This document shows, in pieces, positions 15,701 through 59,212 of a stretch of DNA of 64,000 nucleotides (position 1 is the stretch's first letter; every line of letters starts with the position of its first letter). The position numbers were made by a program, and so were the translations under genes. The notes beneath the pieces are model-generated. The model saw only the letters and a list, made by a program, of their open reading frames with translations. It was not told the origin of the DNA and searched no databases. The stretch comes from Escherichia phage PHB12, in sequence record MK524178.1; one strand, 5' to 3'.

Positions 15701-15758
15701 AACGTTTTCCTCATGTTGTTGATGGAATGATAGTATCACACATCCATGTGTTTGTAAA

Positions 15759-17846
15759 CTATCCTTGGACAAATTTAAACGGAACTGATTCTAAATCCAT
15801 TAAAGATGCTAACAATTTCAATCCTTTAGGAGCACTAGTTTTTTCTACAAATGAAGAGAACGATACCGGCTCATCCGATTCGATTTCACCCGTCATAGCA
15901 ACCACCTCGCCTGTTTCCATGAGAACATCACCATCGTAAATGACAGCTTCATCCAACTGGTCTGAGGACATGACTTCAGCTTGAATAAATTTAAGGTTGG
16001 ATTCTAAACCTGCACCAGTGTCAGATGACGCATCTGTAATTTTATTTATCTGCAAGAGAATGCCTCTAGGCAAAATAATTTCTTGCTCGTTAGGGTGATT
16101 ACTCAACTGTCCCGGATAAATCACGTTAACTTTATGAGCGCCATCAATAGCCCATCCAACGTTAACACGGATTTGTTCTGGTGCATGCATAGCTGTTCTT
16201 ACTTGACTAGGAGAAATAGTAACACCTTCGTCGTTATTATCAATGTTAAGCTCTTTGCGAACTTCTTCAGGAGCAAGTCCAAGGGCAACGTTCTCTTTAA
16301 ACCCACCGAAAATAATAGGAGCTAGTGAAGTGGAAACATAGTTTCTGAAGTAGAATACCTTATTTTTAACCATTGCTTCGTAAATAGGCATTCTGATAGA
16401 CTGAGCTCTATATAACGTTAGTCCTTCAGGTAAACGGTCTCCATTTAAAAACGCCGAATCAAGACCATCAATAGCGCGTTTAACTTCATCTTCATCTGCA
16501 ACATCGTAAAAATCTGGTTTATAACGACCTAACAACATATTATTGATATCGGTATACGCAGAAGAGGCATATTCACGAATAGCTCGTTTTTCAGCAACAG
16601 AGTATTGTTTAGGGTCCCGATTCATTGTTATATTAAAGGTGCCTCTAGCCGATTCTCGTGCATAAGTATACATCACATTAGACAAGAACGCTGATTTGCG
16701 TTGTTTCCAAGTTTTTTCAGATACTTCAGCTAAAACGTCGTCGGCCAGTTGGAAATTATCACGTCTAAAATCTTCAAACCATTCGTCTTTAATAGAGTCT
16801 GCAATTTCATTTGCAGCTTCAACAAAAGCAGCTAATGCTTTAACAGATGTTGTTTTTTCAGTTTTAATTTTCTTAGCAAACTTTTCTAAAGTTGGTTTAA
16901 TAACACCACCATAAGAAACTTCATCAGCAAATCTAAAGGATTCATCAATGCGATTATAAATCTTATTTTCGATATCAGCAACTAAAGTGCCTTTTGCTGT
17001 GGACGATGCTTGGGCTAGTACGATTTCATATGCTTCAGGAAGTAATTCAGCTGTAGCTGGGCCGCTAACTTCTTTAGCAGAATTTTCGTATTTCTGGAAT
17101 AACTCACCTTCTTGACGGTCAGCTTCTAAAGATTGACTTGCTGCAATAGCACGACGAGAAATTTTAGTACGAGCAATAACAGGCTTATCTTTACGTTTTT
17201 CTTCTACCGCAGCAATAGAACCAGCGATAGCCGTTTCTTTGGTGACCTTTTCGCCAGTCTTTTTACTCACATAAACTTCGCCAACATCAGAATCTACTTT
17301 CGTGTACAACTCTGTGTTAATGTTAGGGATGCCTTTAATATCTTCAATGTTAGCATTTTTACGAACCATCATCACATAGGTGTGTTTACCTGTGAATTGA
17401 TACATTGCCGACAATACTTTAAAACGGCCACCGGTTTTAGTAGAAACTAAACGAGCAAGAAGAGTTTGAAGTTGTTGTCCACGTCCTTTCAATTTCTTGG
17501 TAGGGAATCGGAACAGAACTGCATCCATACGAAGAGCTTTAACTTGTTCATATACTGTATTGAAAATGGTGTTGATTGCATCAATAGGAGCAGGACCAAG
17601 GCCATTTTTCAATTCAGCGAGATTACCCTTTTCAGACAGACTCATAATAACAACATGAGCGTATTTGTCGCCAAGTTTAACTTGTTTTACAGCATCGCCT
17701 TCAGAAAGGTAAGAGAATAAGCGAACTACGATGTTTGTATCAATATCACCAATCTTCCAGACTTGTGGAACTTTAGCTTTAGGGTTCAAATTGACGACAG
17801 GAAGACTGCCTTCAGATTCAAACACTTCATTTAATTGTTCAGACAT
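15759..17846 (-). CDS. alt: Alt ADP-ribosyltransferase (packaged)
   Basis: 695 aa; conserved ART core (LPEGLTLYRAQS, YEAMVKNKVFYFRNYVSTSL) and C-terminus as in T4 Alt. Confidence 0.93.
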   Translation of the reverse strand: MSEQLNEVFESEGSLPVVNLNPKAKVPQVWKIGDIDTNIVVRLFSYLSEGDAVKQVKLGDKYAHVVIMSLSEKGNLAELKNGLGPAPIDAINTIFNTVYEQVKALRMDAVLFRFPTKKLKGRGQQLQTLLARLVSTKTGGRFKVLSAMYQFTGKHTYVMMVRKNANIEDIKGIPNINTELYTKVDSDVGEVYVSKKTGEKVTKETAIAGSIAAVEEKRKDKPVIARTKISRRAIAASQSLEADRQEGELFQKYENSAKEVSGPATAELLPEAYEIVLAQASSTAKGTLVADIENKIYNRIDESFRFADEVSYGGVIKPTLEKFAKKIKTEKTTSVKALAAFVEAANEIADSIKDEWFEDFRRDNFQLADDVLAEVSEKTWKQRKSAFLSNVMYTYARESARGTFNITMNRDPKQYSVAEKRAIREYASSAYTDINNMLLGRYKPDFYDVADEDEVKRAIDGLDSAFLNGDRLPEGLTLYRAQSIRMPIYEAMVKNKVFYFRNYVSTSLAPIIFGGFKENVALGLAPEEVRKELNIDNNDEGVTISPSQVRTAMHAPEQIRVNVGWAIDGAHKVNVIYPGQLSNHPNEQEIILPRGILLQINKITDASSDTGAGLESNLKFIQAEVMSSDQLDEAVIYDGDVLMETGEVVAMTGEIESDEPVSFSSFVEKTSAPKGLKLLASLMDLESVPFKFVQG

Positions 17847-21864: not shown

Positions 21865-22230
21865 TTAGATATCAAATTCGTTAAGAACTACATCAAAGAT
21901 TGCTTCGAGATGTTCAGGTTTAGCTCGATTGCTCAGGATGTGACGAATCCAAGTTTTTACCAGAAGCTTACGATTAACACCGTTCCAGCAAGGATGGGTA
22001 CCTAAATTACGTTGACGGAAATCGTCATCTAATGCAATTTTGAAGTTGGAACCTTCCATCGTGATTGAAACCGTGATGCCATTTTCAAATCGCATATAAA
22101 CGTAATTAGGAGTCATATACTGCTCAATTTCGCATACTGAACCGTTATTATGCTTCCATAAGCAAATTGTATCGATAGAACCAGCAATACCGTTAGAAAC
22201 ATATTTACGTTCGAAGTTGATGTAGTTCAT
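21865..22230 (-). CDS. hypothetical early protein (121 aa)
   Basis: Preceded by an early promoter and SD GGAGAATAAA. Confidence 0.6.
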   Translation of the reverse strand: MNYINFERKYVSNGIAGSIDTICLWKHNNGSVCEIEQYMTPNYVYMRFENGITVSITMEGSNFKIALDDDFRQRNLGTHPCWNGVNRKLLVKTWIRHILSNRAKPEHLEAIFDVVLNEFDI

Positions 22231-22304
22231 TTTATTCTCCAGATGTTTAAGTTGTTTGTTGGTACAGGTCTATAATAACAAAACCTGTACCAAAGTAAAC
22301 ATTT

Positions 22305-22676
22305 TTATTTGATTTTTGTCCACTTAGCTGAATCAATAACACCTTTTGCTTTAATCTTCTCGATTAATGTCTCTGCGCGATTTCTGGCATTTTCGTACCA
22401 TACAACATCTTCAGAGTAACCAGTTTCTTCATCTTCGTAAGTTTTAGAACGAATACAACCATAAACTGTAGAATTCAGACGGTAAATTTCACCAGTGAAA
22501 AAGTTTTCGATTTCGATATGATAACAAAAATCGTCTGAAGGGCCATCAGGAGTTGTACAATAAACTACATCACCTTGAACCGAACGAACCATCCACTGTA
22601 ACTCGTTAACAACTTGAGATTTATATCCATCATGGTCACGGCATTTAATTGTAGCATTTAAATTGATAGTGTTCAT
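22305..22676 (-). CDS. hypothetical early protein (123 aa)
   Basis: Preceded by a near-identical promoter/SD module. Confidence 0.6.
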   Translation of the reverse strand: MNTINLNATIKCRDHDGYKSQVVNELQWMVRSVQGDVVYCTTPDGPSDDFCYHIEIENFFTGEIYRLNSTVYGCIRSKTYEDEETGYSEDVVWYENARNRAETLIEKIKAKGVIDSAKWTKIK

Positions 22677-22774
22677 TTTATTCTCCGGTTGTTTTATTGA
22701 TTAGGTAGTACAAGTCTATAGTAACACATCCTACAGGAGAGTAAACATCTTTTTAAACTTTTTCTGCCCTAAAC

Positions 22775-28364: not shown

Positions 28365-28392
28365 TTAGATTTCCTCAATTATCCATAGGAGC

Positions 28393-28422
28393 ATTATACT
28401 CTGCTCCCGAGAGTTTGTAAAC
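28393..28422 (-). promoter_or_regulatory. early promoter inside a stem-loop
   Basis: Minus strand GTTTAC - 18 nt - TATAAT; -10 flanked by inverted repeat GGAGCA/TGCTCC. Confidence 0.65.
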
Positions 28423-28646
28423 TATTTTACTAAAGATTCGATATACTCATGAAGAGCTTTAGTTGCTACTGCCCACTTATTCTGATATTCATTTTTCAGA
28501 TTAGCACGAGACTGAACTAACAAGCGGTCATTAGTCGGAGGCAAAGATTCTAATCGTTGAATCTGACGGCCATAAATCATAGCCGCCATTTCAGAGTCAT
28601 AGATAAGTCCTTTAAGGTATTCATGCTGTTCTTTAGTCATTGACAT
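28422..28646 (-). CDS. hypothetical protein (74 aa)
   Basis: ORF upstream of the spanin pair. Confidence 0.55.
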   Translation of the reverse strand: MSMTKEQHEYLKGLIYDSEMAAMIYGRQIQRLESLPPTNDRLLVQSRANLKNEYQNKWAVATKALHEYIESLVK

Positions 28647-29798: not shown

Positions 29799-29828
29799 AT
29801 AGTAACACCATCCTTGGTGTTTGTAAAC
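29799..29828 (-). promoter_or_regulatory. early promoter upstream of alc
   Basis: Minus strand GTTTAC - 18 nt - TACTAT. Confidence 0.55.
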
Positions 29829-29830
29829 CA

Positions 29831-30964
<1,134 letters not shown>

Positions 30965-42905: not shown

Positions 42906-45900
42906 ATGGTTGACATCAAACGTAAGTTCAGGGCCGAAGATGGTCTTGACGCAGGCGGTGATAAGATAGTTAACGTTGCGCTTGCTGACCGCACAGTTGG
43001 CACCGATGGCGTGAACGTTGACTTTTTGGTGCAAGAAAACACCGTACAGAATTATGACGAGACGCGCGCGTATACAAAAGATTTTATTGTTCTTTATGAT
43101 AATCGTTTTTATCAAGCTTTAAGCGATATTCCAGCTCCGGCAGGCCCTTTCTCTTTGGCTAAATGGAAGGCAACTCGTACAGATGCAGAATGGATTACAG
43201 TTCAAGGCGGAGATTTCCAATTATCAGTAGGTAACTCTATTGCGGTTGATACTTCAGCTGGCACTGATATTAATTTCACTTTGCCTCAAAATCCTTTAGA
43301 TGGCGATACAGTTATTTTGTCTGATATTGGCGGTAGAGTAGGCTATGTAAAAGTTCAAATTACTGCAGCGGCTCAAAGTATTGTAAACTTTAGAGGACAA
43401 CAGGTTCGTTCAGTTTTAATGACGCACCCAAAATCTAAAATGGTCTTCATTTTTAGCAACCGCCTATGGCAAATGTATGTTTCTGATTACGAACGTAATG
43501 CAGTCACAGTAACTCCTGCTGCGCCATATCAAGCGCAACCTAATGATTTTATCATTCGACGTTTTACATCAGCCGCTCCTATTAATATTACATTGCCTCG
43601 TAATGCTAATAATGGCGATATTATTAATTTAGTGGATTTGGACAAATTAAACCCATTATATCACACAATTGTCAAAACTTACGATGATACAACTTCTATA
43701 CGAGAAGCTGGTGTTCATGTAGCAGAAGGACGTAATACTGCGGAAGCATTCTTTGTTTATGATTCTGCCAATAGTTTATGGCGTGTTTGGGAAGGTGACC
43801 AGAAATCTCGTTTACGTATAGTTCGTAATGATACTGATTTACGCCCTAATGAAGAAGTTCTTGTTTTTGGAACTAATAATGATACAATCTCGACGGTAAA
43901 TCTTACTTTGCCTACAGATATTTTGTCTGGCGATACTGTTAAAATATCGTTGAATTATATGCGTAAAGGGCAAACTGTAAAAATTAAAGCTGCTGAAGGC
44001 GATACAATTGCTAGCAGTATTTCTTTATTACAGTTCCCAAAACGTTCGGAGTATCCACCTGATGCACAATGGGTTTCTGTTAGTGAGCTAGAATTTAATG
44101 GTGATACTTCGTATGTACCTGTACTTGAGTTAGCTTATATAGAAGATTATTCATCTGAAACAAAATATTGGGTAGTTCAACAAAACACCGTAACCGTCGA
44201 ACGAGTCGATGCATCGAGCAATACCACTCGAGCTCGTTTAGGTGTTATTGCTCTTGCTTCTCAAGCGCAAGCAAATGTCGATTTAGAAAATGCTCCTGGT
44301 AAAGAACTGGCTATTACTCCGGAAACATTAGCAAATCGTACAGCAACTGAAACTCGTCGTGGTATTGCTCGTATTGCAACAACTGCACAAGTTAACCAGA
44401 ATACCGATTTTGCATTCCAAGACGACTTGATTATTTCTCCTAAGAAATTGAACGAACGTACAGCAACTGAAACCCGTAGAGGTGTTGCTGAAGTTGCAAC
44501 TCAGGCTGAAACTAATGCTGGAACAGATGACACCACTATTATTACTCCTAAGAAATTGGATGGCCGTCAAGGTTCTGAAGTTTTATCTGGTATTGTAAAA
44601 TACACATCTACGACTGGTACTACAGCGGCTACTGTTCGTGGTAATGCTGGGACTAACGTTTATAACAAAGCCGTAGATAATTTAACTATTTCTCCAAAGG
44701 CTCTTGACCAGTATAAAGCTACCCCTACTCAGCAGGGTGCAGTAATTCTTGCTATTGAAAGTGAAGTTATCGCTGGCGAATCACAAGCTGGTTGGGCTAA
44801 TGCTGTAGTGACCCCTGAAACTCTGCATAAGAAAACTTCTACTGATGGACGTATTGGTTTAATTGAAATTGCTACGCAAGCAGAAACTAACACTGGAACT
44901 GATTATACTAGAGCAGTAACGCCTAAGACGTTAAATGATAGGAAAGCTACGGAAGGATTATCTGGCATAGCCGAAATTGCTACGCAAGTTGAATTTGATA
45001 CTGGAACTGATGATACTCGTATCTCGACTCCACTGAAAATTAAAACTCATTTTGATTCTTCTGACCGTACCAGTGTTAATTCTGATTCCGGACTTATTGA
45101 AGAAGGAACCTTGTGGAACCATTATACTCTTGATATTTCTAAAGCAAATGAAACACAACGTGGTACACTTCGCGTAGCTACTCAGGCAGAATCTAATGCC
45201 GGAACTTTAGATGATGTTCTTATTACTCCTAAAAAACTTTTAGGGACTAAGTCCACTGAAACGTCTGAAGGCGTGATTAAGGTTGCTACTCAGGCTGAAA
45301 CTGTAACAGGAACTTCTGCTAATACTGCTGTATCACCTAAGAATTTAAAATGGATTGTCCAGAATGAACCAACATGGGCTGCTACTACGGCAATTCGTGG
45401 ATTCGTTAAAACTTCATCTGGTTCTATTACATTCGTTGGTGACGATACTCAAGGTAGTACCCAGGACCTGAATCTTTACGAGAAAAATAGTTATGCTATT
45501 TCTCCATATGAATTAAACCGTGTACTTGCTAACTATTTGCCATTGAAAGCTAAAGCCGTAGATAGTAATCTGTTAGATGGTCTAGATTCTCTTCAGTTCA
45601 TCCGTAGAGACATCGACCAGACGGTTAATGGTTCTTTAAGTCTTACTAAACAGACCAACCTGAGTGCTCCTTTAGTATCTACAAGCACTGCTTCTTTTGG
45701 TTCCGAAGCATCTGTTACTCGTAGATTAACTCTTAATGACTCTAGTGGTTCCGAAATAGTTTTCACTAAAGGAACTCAATCTCTTAGTAATAAAGAGAAT
45801 TTCGTTGTTAGAGCATGGGGTAATAGCGCTACAGATGGTGCCCGTGATACAGTATTTGAAGCGGGTGACGAAACCGGATACCATTTCTATTCTCAGCGCG

Positions 45901-55512: not shown

Positions 55513-56145
55513 TCACAGTACGTTAGTTACAAGGGTAATGATTTCTTTGGACACATTAGGGAAGTCAATGTAAGTATATTTACCACCGATCTTAATCTTA
55601 ACATCATTTTCAAGAGAAGTAAACAGCTTTGATTCAGTTTCTGACATGTTGTATGCAAAGATTCTAAGAGAACCATTTCGACGAATTTCGATCTGACGAA
55701 TACCTAGAACTCGTTTTGCAAATCGAACTTCCAAGTTACTACGGTTTTCACCAATTTCTTTAACTTCAACTTTATCTTTAATATTTTCAAAAACAAAGTT
55801 TGCTAGTTCATGCATTTCAGGAGTAACTCCACGTGCTTTTCTGGTGTTACGTTTCTGAAGAAGTTCTGGAGCATTTTCTTGGGCAAAGAGGTCTGCAGCT
55901 TTTTGGATAATATCCATTGCTTCGCCTGTTGCTATAAGTCCATCACCAGATTTTTCGACTAAACCTTTCTTAATCAATACACCAATGTTAGAGTTAACAA
56001 CCGATGCATTGTATTCCGCTTCCAGAGCTTCCCGGACATTGGCAGCAGTGGTGAAGTTGTTCTTAATGATATAAACCATTATTGCAGCAGTTTTTTCATT
56101 CAGAGCGTTTTCGGAAGCTTTGATGATGTAAGTAACTTTAGACAT
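55513..56145 (-). CDS. motA: MotA, activator of middle transcription
   Basis: 210 aa; matches T4 MotA. Confidence 0.93.
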   Translation of the reverse strand: MSKVTYIIKASENALNEKTAAIMVYIIKNNFTTAANVREALEAEYNASVVNSNIGVLIKKGLVEKSGDGLIATGEAMDIIQKAADLFAQENAPELLQKRNTRKARGVTPEMHELANFVFENIKDKVEVKEIGENRSNLEVRFAKRVLGIRQIEIRRNGSLRIFAYNMSETESKLFTSLENDVKIKIGGKYTYIDFPNVSKEIITLVTNVL

Positions 56146-56204
56146 TTTATTTCTCCAATTTGGTTGTTTTGTTTTGATAGGTCTATAATATCATGTTTGA
56201 AGCA
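56137..56204. repeat. 68-bp direct repeat, copy 1 (promoter/5'UTR/start cassette of motA)
   Basis: Identical to 56458..56525; similarity extends about 9 nt further with 2 mismatches. Confidence 0.9.
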
Positions 56205-56213
56205 AAAGTAAAC
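56185..56213 (-). promoter_or_regulatory. early promoter for motA
   Basis: Minus strand GTTTAC - 17 nt - TATTAT, inside the repeat. Confidence 0.6.
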
Positions 56214-56250
56214 TTTATTTTGGGCTCTTTTTCAAAAGCCCTGGTAAAAT

Positions 56251-56466
56251 TTACAAACTCATTTCTTTAATAAGGCTAATAAGTTTTGCCTTTTTAGAAC
56301 GAAGCTTTTCTAAATGATGTCCATTTGAACCGCGAACCACTAAAGAATTGATTTCAACTTCTAAGAAATTTAATTCTTCAACAAGTGCTTTACGTGGAGC
56401 ATTCATACCAGGTTTAACTTTACCGAAACGAGTAGTTGTGTTTTGGGTTAATTTCATTTTAGACAT
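56251..56466 (-). CDS. hypothetical basic protein (71 aa)
   Basis: ORF starting MSK from the duplicated cassette. Confidence 0.55.
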   Translation of the reverse strand: MSKMKLTQNTTTRFGKVKPGMNAPRKALVEELNFLEVEINSLVVRGSNGHHLEKLRSKKAKLISLIKEMSL

Positions 56467-56525
56467 TTTATTTCTCCAATTTGGTTGTTTTGTTTTGATA
56501 GGTCTATAATATCATGTTTGAAGCA
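56458..56525. repeat. 68-bp direct repeat, copy 2
   Basis: Identical to 56137..56204. Confidence 0.9.
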
Positions 56526-56534
56526 CATGTAAAC
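56506..56534 (-). promoter_or_regulatory. early promoter for the 71-aa ORF
   Basis: Minus strand GTTTAC - 17 nt - TATTAT. Confidence 0.6.
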
Positions 56535-56553
56535 TGTTTTGTGAGAAAAATGC

Positions 56554-56575
56554 ACAAAAGGGAGCCGAAGCTCCC
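56554..56575 (-). terminator. hairpin terminator after gene 52
   Basis: GGGAGC-TTCG-GCTCCC followed by TTTTG. Confidence 0.75.
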
Positions 56576-56651
56576 TAATCATGTTTGTCCAACCAATACA
56601 GCCAAATCACTAGTGCAGCTATTGCACCGAGAAATCCTAAGGCTAGGGCAC

Positions 56652-57977
56652 TCAAAGTGCCTCCAAGTCTTTAGTGTACTCTGTCACAACATCAGTAGAC
56701 TTCCAATACTCATTTTCTTCTTTCTTAGCTTTAGCTTCTTCTGCTAGTTTACGTGCTTCGTCGGAAGTGATATGGAAGATGTTAAGGCCTACCAGTTTAT
56801 CGACATGTTCTTTATACATTTCGATTTGTGCTAGCTCTTCAGTCAAAGCTTTACGAGTCTTGCCCTGAATCACAATTTCACCTGTAATAACTTTTTTGAT
56901 GAAGTGTGCCTTAGCAAAAGCCAGTTTAAATGCTTTTTCAGATTCAAGGATTTTGTTGTCAATACGTTTCTGAACGTAAGTCTTACGGACTTCAACAAAA
57001 TCTTTGATTAAGTCCACTACGTTATCGTAGACAGCTAATTTACCCTTTTCATTAATCACTGTGATGTTTTGTGAACGACGTTCGATGAGACTAAAATCTT
57101 TCATGATTTTTTCATGACGTAGCTCTTCATCATCAGGAAGCGAGTACTCTTTACGGAACTTCACCTTAAACCCAAAGCCGTGTTCACCACAATCATCTTC
57201 CCATGAGATTAGACCTTTGTCTTCCAGCGGGTCAAGAACCTTACTCACATACGTTTCACGGTCAAATTTATATGGGATTTCAGTTATCTGCATTTGAGTG
57301 CGAGATGTGAACTTATATGTTCCGTGAATCTCATAACGCCCATCAACTTCATGTACTTCACCACGGAATTCCGGGAATTCAACTTTTGGCTTAGTGACAT
57401 TTTTACCTTGAAGAGCTTGTAATACAGCCTTTTTGACTGATTTAAAACTATGAGGCAGAATATTTGTTGCGTAACCGGTTGCAATACCGGAGACACCATT
57501 CAAAAGAACTGTTGGAATAATAGGAAGATAGAATTTTGGTGGAATGTGTTCTTTATCTTCATGAGCTGGAGCATATTCAGTATCTTTATATACGTTATAG
57601 AAATTTTTACTTACACGAGCAAAAATATAACGAGACGCTGCAGCTTTTTGGACTGTTCGAGAACCAAAGTTGCCTTGGCCATCTAACAGTGGATAGTTGT
57701 TGTTCCATGTGTTAGCCATCAATGCACCTGCATCTTGTGCAGAAGATTCGCCATGGTGATAACCTAAATCTGCAACACCACCTGCAATTGACGCAAGTTT
57801 ATGAAATTTTTCTTTATTACCACGAGCCAAATCTAACGCACGATGAACCACAAAACGTTGAACCGGCTTAAATCCATCAATCATGTTTGGGATTGCACGG
57901 TTTTCAACGGTGTACATCGCATATGCTAAGGCTTCGTTATCAATAATACTTTTTAGATTACGAGAATTCAATTGCAT
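56652..57977 (-). CDS. 52: DNA topoisomerase II medium subunit gp52
   Basis: 441 aa; matches T4 gp52 throughout. Confidence 0.96.
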   Translation of the reverse strand: MQLNSRNLKSIIDNEALAYAMYTVENRAIPNMIDGFKPVQRFVVHRALDLARGNKEKFHKLASIAGGVADLGYHHGESSAQDAGALMANTWNNNYPLLDGQGNFGSRTVQKAAASRYIFARVSKNFYNVYKDTEYAPAHEDKEHIPPKFYLPIIPTVLLNGVSGIATGYATNILPHSFKSVKKAVLQALQGKNVTKPKVEFPEFRGEVHEVDGRYEIHGTYKFTSRTQMQITEIPYKFDRETYVSKVLDPLEDKGLISWEDDCGEHGFGFKVKFRKEYSLPDDEELRHEKIMKDFSLIERRSQNITVINEKGKLAVYDNVVDLIKDFVEVRKTYVQKRIDNKILESEKAFKLAFAKAHFIKKVITGEIVIQGKTRKALTEELAQIEMYKEHVDKLVGLNIFHITSDEARKLAEEAKAKKEENEYWKSTDVVTEYTKDLEAL

Positions 57978-58320: not shown

Positions 58321-58767
58321 TTAATAACTCTGCAGAATGAATTTGAAATTATCTGCCAGAAGACGGTTCATTTCAGTGAGTGTTTGATATTCTGATGTAT
58401 GGTTGCGAGTGAATGCCAGAGCCAATTGACCTTTACCATAACCGGTGGTCAGTGGTTTCATGTTCTTAGCTGCAACAAAGATTACATCATATTCGATATT
58501 GTTAGTGCCCATTGTACGGGCTAGTTGCGAACGGCCTTGACGAATGTGAGAAAGAATTGCATCCAACCCTTGTTTAGAACGTTGGCGTCCTACAAAGAAT
58601 CGTGCTGCCACTTGACGCCAATCAGACGAACCTTTAACAAAGAAGTAAAAACCTTCACGAGAACGAAACTCTTTAGAAACTTCAGAACCGTATTCGCCAT
58701 TACGAACTACTGCAACAACTTCACCGCCAACTGCCAGAAGGTCTTTACGAGTTAAATATTTGGACAT
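58321..58767 (-). CDS. ndd: nucleoid disruption protein Ndd
   Basis: 148 aa; conserved core FYVGxQRSKQG...LSHIRQxRSQLART...[22 protein letters not shown] as in T4 Ndd. Confidence 0.9.
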
Positions 58768-58811
58768 GCTAATTTCCTCAATTGATTAATGTTTTTGTAA
58801 TCCATGAGAGC

Positions 58812-58840
58812 ATTATACTCTGCTCTCAAGAGTTTGTACA
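58812..58840 (-). promoter_or_regulatory. early promoter for ndd inside a stem-loop
   Basis: Minus strand TTGTACA - 17 nt - TATAAT; -10 flanked by GAGAGCA/TGCTCTC. Confidence 0.6.
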
Positions 58841-58843
58841 ATT

Positions 58844-59044
58844 TTATTCGGTTATATCAGAACGTTCAAAAAGCTCTTCAACAGTTAAACATTCGGTGTC
58901 ATCCTCAATAAAGAATCGGGTCCAACACGTTGGGGCGATGCAGTTATGAGTTTGTCCGGCTATAGAAGCTACACGAATAAGCTGCTGGCCATTATTCAGG
59001 ACAAATTTTTCACCAATTTCAACATCTTTAAAAAGCTTAGCCAT
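58844..59044 (-). CDS. hypothetical protein (66 aa)
   Basis: ORF with an early promoter upstream. Confidence 0.5.
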   Translation of the reverse strand: MAKLFKDVEIGEKFVLNNGQQLIRVASIAGQTHNCIAPTCWTRFFIEDDTECLTVEELFERSDITE

Positions 59045-59104
59045 TTTGTGTTCCTCTTGTTTTGATAGGACTACTATACCATAATCCTACTGTGTTGTAA
59101 ACAA

Positions 59105-59212
59105 TTAAATTACATTAAAATATGTTAAAGCCAACCATGTTCCAGTGAACGAACATGCGATGTAAAAACCTGTATCGCAAATTGTTCTTAGTACAATAAG
59201 TGCATTTTTCAT
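59105..59212 (-). CDS. possible small protein (35 aa), not in supplied ORF track
   Basis: ATGA-coupled to the upstream micro-ORF; SD GAGGT. Confidence 0.3.
   Translation of the reverse strand: MKNALIVLRTICDTGFYIACSFTGTWLALTYFNVI

Follow-up and report, generated by a model that had tools for sequence, protein, structure and literature searches.

The perfect 68-bp direct repeat that lies directly before motA in the window (the whole stretch of DNA analysed here, 64,000 nt) very probably forms the core of two tandem cassettes of the PeSL type, which bracket a 71-codon gene and have a role both in regulation and in recombination. PeSLs (promoter-early stem-loops) of T4-like phages combine a stem-loop with an A/T-rich stretch and an early promoter, plus the SD and start codon of the gene that follows. 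They flank small genes of unknown function; recombination between adjacent copies has been proposed to bring about excision, insertion, and exchange, and this has been shown in part (Arbiol et al. 2010, PMC2839356; Comeau et al. 2014, PMC4122927). The initial annotation, made from the letters of the window, had described a perfect repeat with a -10, leader, SD, and first three codons (MSK) in each copy, together with a shared -35, ahead of motA and of the gene upstream of it. Self-comparison of the window shows that the repeat is real and that its two copies start 321 bp apart (Table 1), and all of these elements, as well as the identity of motA, were correctly assigned. An extended repeat (56137-56222 and 56458-56543) covers 86 nt at 94% identity. 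A search of the 64-kb window for further copies of the 68-mer, with up to 3 mismatches allowed, recovered the two copies already known and no others, and none of 100 dinucleotide-preserving shuffles of the window contained a match.

Table 1. Features of the region from gene 52 to motA, with positions given in the coordinates of the window.
Feature	Position	Strand	Description
Gene 52, DNA topoisomerase II medium subunit	56652..57977	-	ORF; conserved left neighbour of the slot
26-codon hydrophobic ORF	56575..56655	-	MSALALGFLGAIAALVIWLYWLDKHD; TTG start overlapping the gene 52 stop
Upstream-cassette stem-loop	56559..56576	-	AGGGAGC-UUCG-GCUCCCU, then UUUGUGCAUUUUU (U-run); terminator-like
Early promoter, upstream cassette	56506..56534	-	GTTTAC 56534-56529, 17-nt spacer with TG, TATTAT 56511-56506
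Upstream 68-nt copy	56458..56525	-	Promoter spacer, -10, leader, GGAG 56477-56474, ATG 56466-56464, TCT AAA
Cargo gene, 71 aa	56251..56466	-	phrog_6200; between gene 52 and motA
motA-side stem-loop	56222..56241	-	GGGCUUUU-GAAA-AAGAGCCC, without U-run
Early promoter, motA-side cassette	56185..56213	-	GTTTAC 56213-56208, 17-nt spacer with TG, TATTAT 56190-56185
motA-side 68-nt copy	56137..56204	-	Leader is the version normally preceding the small ORF; GGAG 56156-56153
motA, activator of middle-mode transcription	55513..56145	-	Pfam MotA_activ 1e-39, MotCF; phrog_1345 4e-90

All genes in the region lie on the minus strand of an RB69-like genome of the genus Mosigvirus, and the best match to the window is phage NHEP10 (99.2%). 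Gene 52 is annotated as such in RB69, SA79RD, JS98, and T4. The 26-codon ORF that overlaps its stop is the counterpart of T4 motA.1 in position; its frame is intact in all 21 related loci compared, with an ATG start in LF82-33, ESCO47, and JS98. In the window, GGAGG lies directly upstream of the TTG start of this ORF, which is missing from the annotation of every Mosigvirus record compared. The 71-aa cargo gene takes its first three codons (MSK) from the repeat, and its fourth codon is an in-frame ATG. Its product matches the uncharacterised family phrog_6200 (E 3e-40), and a Pfam search assigned it to no family. A database search returned 8 matches, all of them close relatives, and a profile search of solved structures returned insignificant matches only (ribosomal protein L23, E 0.08). 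The cargo was found only in Mosigvirus, Dhakavirus, and close relatives, among which it has the invariant core LEVEINSLVVRGSNG. Hypothetical proteins have been annotated across the cassette promoter and leader in NHEP10 (locus positions 869-997) and NRG-P0074 (locus positions 894-1031); their equivalent in the window is a 42-aa ORF (56454-56582), and these are probably spurious gene calls.

Both copies carry the promoter GTTTAC-N17-TATTAT, with TG before the -10 and 9-10 of 12 hexamer positions matching. T4 early promoters contain UP and -35 elements together with TGn and the -10, and their conservation reaches beyond the two hexamers. The promoter of the upstream cassette is orthologous to the T4 region 5' of motA (CACAAAACGGTTTAC...). 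An A-rich leader of about 33 nt follows in each copy, then TTGGAGAAATAAAATG, then TCT AAA, such that the SD and start at the 3' end of both copies read GGAGAAATAAAATG. From this arrangement, each cassette would be predicted to drive immediate-early expression of its own gene. Identical early regulation of the two genes, as claimed in the initial annotation, can be upheld from about -30 to codon 3 but not upstream of the -35 or at the stem-loops, which differ. The possibility of a structured leader was rejected, as the leaders fold no better than their shuffles (z +0.4 to +1.0). A reading of TGCTTCA in the promoter spacer as a MotA box was likewise rejected, given that the motif ends just 7 nt before TATTAT; a MotA box (TGCTTtA) has its centre near -30 and lies about 12 nt upstream of the -10. 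The annotation of the SA79RD record gives a middle-promoter pattern of GCTT(N13-15)TATAAT.

The two stem-loops differ in sequence and both lie outside the perfect repeat, just upstream of the promoters, which is also their place in the PeSLs of T-even phages. That of the upstream cassette (fold -12.9 to -16.5 kcal/mol, z -3.5) is labelled a terminator in the SA79RD and NRG-P0074 records and, by analogy, would terminate transcription of the unit formed by gene 52 and the 26-codon ORF. That of the motA side (fold -12.3 kcal/mol, z -3.0) is also labelled a terminator in SA79RD, a role that is doubtful because it has no U-run. For the same reason it is conceivable, if speculative, that motA in two-cassette phages is also reached by read-through transcripts from the upstream promoter. 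The upstream hairpin itself varies in what looks like a recurrent inversion of the loop: it reads TTCG in the window and most genomes (GGGAGC-TTCG-GCTCCC) and CGAA in RB69, JS09, LF82-33, and S143_2 (GGGAGC-CGAA-GCTCCC), genomes that are otherwise near-identical. In moskry, the stem of this hairpin is lengthened.

The distribution of the two cassettes among related phages was examined in GenBank phage records, which form the comparison set (a scan of IMG/VR with MotA gave 2 loci). A 901-nt query, bounded by the end of gene 52 and the motA start, matched about 155 Mosigvirus records at 95% identity or higher. The full 901 nt, and with it the two-cassette state, was covered in 75 of these, while about 80, RB69 included, span 580-584 nt and have a single cassette and one 321-bp period fewer. 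The spacer between gene 52 and motA is correspondingly 185 nt in RB69 versus 506 nt here, a difference of exactly 321. Both states occur within one ICTV species, where APCEc01 has two cassettes and moskry and mar007P3 have one. For closer comparison, the cassettes of 22 related loci and T4 were aligned, with 11 two-copy and 12 single-cassette Mosigvirus loci sampled. A neighbour-joining tree of 22 tips, based on 1.5 kb of the flanks, shows genomes with one copy and genomes with two fully intermingled (9 Fitch changes versus a permuted mean of 7.6); this tree is shallow and its tips were chosen from a ranked list of hits, not by random draw, so no number of events is claimed. Its nearest neighbours, F2 and the Mosigvirus ST0, are separated by only 9 differences in 1512 flank positions and yet are unlike in cassette state. 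The scatter of states appears to fit repeated events or frequent recombination at the site, although ordinary recombination of the flanks, spreading a few old events rather than generating many new ones, could also produce it. Phage F2 (NC_054913.1) carries the classification Tequatrovirus, yet at the motA locus it shares 98% identity with Mosigvirus genomes, which suggests either that the record is misclassified or that the genome is mosaic.

The junctions of the single cassettes can be traced through the leaders, of which there are two types. The small ORF is always preceded by AAAACAAAACAACCAAATTGGAG, and motA is preceded by AAAACAAATACTAATTTGGAG in 9 of the 11 two-copy genomes. In JS98, the motA leader and initiation region resemble those of T4, and the leader of the small ORF resembles that of the Mosigvirus small ORF. 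These likenesses suggest that the two leader types are old and gene-specific. In 11 of the 12 sampled single-cassette Mosigvirus loci, the leader of the small ORF is fused to motA, a combination that can be derived solely from a two-cassette arrangement. Such a fusion requires a crossover in the final 22 nt (TTGGAGAAATAAAATGTCTAAA) or inside an extended perfect repeat of the kind present in the window. The single cassette of mar007P3 retains the -10 variant GATAGTATAAACC, which is specific to the upstream copy of the conspecific APCEc01. RB69 differs from the leader-fusion loci in that its upstream flank is joined to motA's own leader, and there are therefore at least two junction classes. The RB69 junction has one of two histories, a crossover within the promoter core or a slot that has always been empty; the sequence does not fix the direction of individual events, and RB69 could represent the never-filled rather than the deleted state.

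The cargo is also subject to replacement. In the Dhakavirus EcWhh-1, the same two cassettes surround an unrelated gene of 75 aa, for which BLASTP against the 71-aa cargo gave no alignment. Between EcWhh-1 and JS98, homology is near-perfect as far as CTATCAAA, just past the -10, is then lost, and resumes exactly at the downstream stem-loop. The 75-aa cargo was found in 168 phage records, many of them Tequatrovirus, with 97-99% protein identity. One of these, the Tequatrovirus G4498, has flanks with about 96% identity to T4 but only 60-78% to EcWhh-1, whereas about 365 nt of the locus (850-1215), comprising the leader, cargo, stem-loop, and a Dhakavirus-type promoter, are 96-100% identical to EcWhh-1. 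The junctions of this segment lie just downstream of the -10 and in the SD-ATG block. These comparisons indicate that a unit of the EcWhh-1 type has moved into T4-like phages across genera, and since the Dhakavirus-type promoter came with the transferred unit, motA of G4498 now lies under a foreign promoter. In Klebsiella phage Marfa, the slot is occupied by yet other small ORFs with a similar promoter ahead of each, and the slot of T4 holds a single cassette and motA.1 only. The initial annotation had taken the repeat as ready material for homologous recombination or for the modular shuffling of genes and had pointed to the region upstream of motA across T-even phages; deletion, replacement, and transfer are all found at the cassettes there, and the missing periods, chimeric junctions, and exchanged cargo bear out that view.

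It is proposed that the two cassettes serve as portable homology for phage recombination, such that the DNA between them could be excised, re-inserted, exchanged, or copied over with motA left undamaged. Wherever a crossover fell between the promoter spacer and codon 3, the product would be one intact chimeric cassette in frame with motA. Because the cassette enters the first three codons of the gene, every such crossover would keep motA both expressed and in frame. For the PeSLs of RB49 and phi1, mapping placed crossovers between the -10 and the ATG, mini-circles were detected, and T4-type recombination is reported to need just short homology (PMC2839356). By analogy, exchange at the motA slot would proceed through the general phage recombination system, with short homology sufficing and possibly with a mini-circle as intermediate; promoter activity and termination at the upstream hairpin would likewise be expected, and sensitivity to RegB is possible. 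A bolder and tentative extension, which may well prove wrong, is that the motA slot is a conserved landing site across genera, with frequent insertion, swapping, and loss of small early genes via circles, and that the perfect-repeat allele is hyper-recombinogenic. In that case, the homology arms would be the core of the motA promoter and the SD-ATG-MSK block, the latter near-invariant across T-even genera, and the present phage would shed or regain its cargo at a measurable rate within one stock.

The portable-homology model also bears on the age of the repeat and the identity of its copies. The Dhakavirus JS98 keeps the order of gene 52, ORF, and motA, with its own 49-nt repeat, and at the protein level this ORF shares about 75% identity with the 71-aa cargo. 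Three JS98 substitutions (TTCTGC, GCTTTAAAC, and GATACTAT) occur in both JS98 copies and in neither Mosigvirus copy; similarly, the SD and start read GGAGAAATAAAATG in both Mosigvirus copies, whereas motA has GGAGATTAAAATG in JS98 and GGAGATTAGAAAATG in T4. Copying has occurred in both directions. A site beside the -35 (ATG or TTT) was copied from the motA side to the upstream cassette in SA79RD and APCEc01, and the leader was copied the opposite way, from the upstream to the motA-side cassette, in the window and NHEP10. These patterns argue that the duplication is ancient and common to Mosigvirus and Dhakavirus, and that its copies evolve in concert. Its perfect form is restricted: with a 147-nt probe across the motA-side cassette, the motA-side state of the window was found in about 5 of the 75 two-copy records (NHEP10, NHEP11, UGJNEcP1, UGJNEcP2, and EP02SG). 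In the closest relatives the copies differ, with 1 mismatch in NHEP10 and 5 differences, including a 2-nt indel, in most others. Because so few two-copy records share it, the perfect 68-nt identity is best read as a recent, rare, derived state of an old duplication. Replacement of motA's leader by that of the small gene merged two shorter identical blocks into 68 bases, and the overwriting could have come about either by intragenomic conversion or by a cross with a one-cassette phage.

Functional selection alone, maintaining the same promoter strength, leader, and translation start in both copies with no recombination, is a very unlikely explanation of this identity. It draws on the conservation of T4 early promoters past the two hexamers and on the 22-nt SD-ATG-MSK block, which is identical in both copies of all 11 two-copy Mosigvirus genomes sampled. 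It also draws on the GGAG and A-rich tract, which resembles a RegB/S1 target and may act as one; T4 motA RNA has been described as a good RegB substrate. The unstructured leader site GGAGAAAUAAA agrees with the RegB/S1 consensus GGAGRAYARAA in 9 of its 11 positions, with 7 and 8 as the exceptions, and RegB cleavage there is accordingly to be treated as a possibility. Yet the spacers and leaders of the window's other early promoters are unrelated to these, and no further instance of the 22-nt block exists in the window. Since most two-copy genomes have two different leaders, identity of the copies is not required. Moreover, the shared lineage-specific substitutions, the mosaic copies (the TTT/ATG site and the leader swaps), and the exact one-period deletions call for exchange of sequence. 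Selection on translation or RNA processing could nonetheless hold part of the identity, especially from the SD to the ATG.

A dedicated site-specific system of the integron kind, in which a recombinase recognises the stem-loops or the cassette, is very unlikely. Breakpoints do recur in the same places (just past the -10 region, the downstream stem-loop, and the SD-ATG), as such a system would give, and the authors of the PeSL work raised a site-specific mechanism and likened the cassettes to integrons (PMC2839356). The crossover positions nevertheless vary within the shared homology (promoter core or 22-nt block), as homology-driven exchange predicts, and no recombinase gene is evident beside the slot. 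Furthermore, the two stem-loops are unlike in sequence, the upstream loop flips among genomes, and short homology is reported to suffice for T4-type recombination (PMC2839356); a dedicated enzyme is not needed. A recent tandem duplication in the present phage or an assembly artefact, which the perfect identity of 68 nt taken alone would suggest, is scarcely credible given the presence of the layout and gene in 75 Mosigvirus records and in JS98-type Dhakavirus, the conserved protein-coding gene between the copies, the differences between copies in the closest relatives (NHEP10 1 mismatch, most others 5), and a repeat length below that of a sequencing read; the artefact, named in the initial annotation as what would overturn it, is ruled out because 75 independent phage records share the two-cassette arrangement.

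The cassettes upstream of motA are of the PeSL type already published; they constitute an unusually well-sampled instance and no new principle. Both copies have a stem-loop, an A/T-rich stretch, T4-type promoter spacing, and an SD with start codon, and they bracket a small gene of unknown function that differs by gain, loss, and replacement among close relatives. The published cases share with the motA slot the same composite elements in two copies around a small gene of unknown function, a close relative with a single chimeric cassette, crossovers between the -10 and the ATG, and exchange of cargo. Several features set the present slot apart. First, it lies directly before motA, a central regulator, whereas the published PeSLs lie inside clusters of orphan genes. 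Second, its shared block enters both reading frames by three codons. Third, the published cases are pairs of phages, in contrast to the roughly 155 genomes here, with presence and absence near 50:50, two-way conversion, and transfer between genera. Mini-circles were detected in published work; at the present locus, sequence comparison shows the anatomy, the presence, absence, and replacement states, the junction haplotypes, the concerted evolution, and the transfer. The T-even PeSL consensus was published on the PST/T4 pair. Neither motA nor RB69 is mentioned in the two PeSL papers (PMC2839356; PMC4122927), and none of the papers searched treats PeSL together with RB69.

Likenesses extend to other systems. 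The region 5' of T4 motA is an orthologous single cassette with a hairpin and T-run, CACAAAACGGTTTAC, a leader, GGAG, and ATG TCT AAA; it differs in being present in one copy, with no gene between motA.1 and motA, and in the sequence of its spacer and leader. With morons and integron cassettes, the unit shares its small, self-contained form (promoter, gene, and terminator-like hairpin), its fixed slot between conserved genes, and its alternative cargos. It differs from them in that the slot has no integrase or attC-like site, the unit is co-oriented with its neighbours, and its mobility appears to be based on homology of regulatory sequence.

One slot sampled in more than 150 genomes thus displays an empty state, two unrelated cargos, two-way conversion, and transfer between genera, with junctions placed to the base, and as such offers a well-sampled natural example for the PeSL model. 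It illustrates how a phage can tolerate a recombination hotspot directly before a key regulator. For work that engineers or resequences RB69-like phages, the repeat marks a site where instability can be foreseen, and host-specific early functions are candidate roles for the 71-aa and 75-aa cargos.

Other repeats in the window were also noted. A second cassette-like pair lies on the minus strand at 22214-22324 and 22660-22770 (111 nt, 72% identical, 446 bp apart) and flanks a 123-aa ORF (22305-22676). Both of its copies carry GTTTAC-N17-TA(T/C)TAT and GGAGAATAAAATGAAC, which agrees at every position with the T4 RegB consensus GGAGAAUAAAA, and a GGGAGACTTCGGTCTCCC hairpin precedes the upstream copy. 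Two sets of short repeats (28381-28426, 58800-58845, and 59061-59106; 405-437, 15730-15762, and 29799-29831) end in TTTGTAAAC on the plus strand, that is, GTTTACAAA on the minus strand, and probably represent further early promoters of this general kind. One of them lies just upstream of an ndd-like gene (58321-58767). Finally, three diverged, in-frame-looking repeats of 108-120 nt, 69-76% identical, occur at 44310-44579, probably inside a structural gene.
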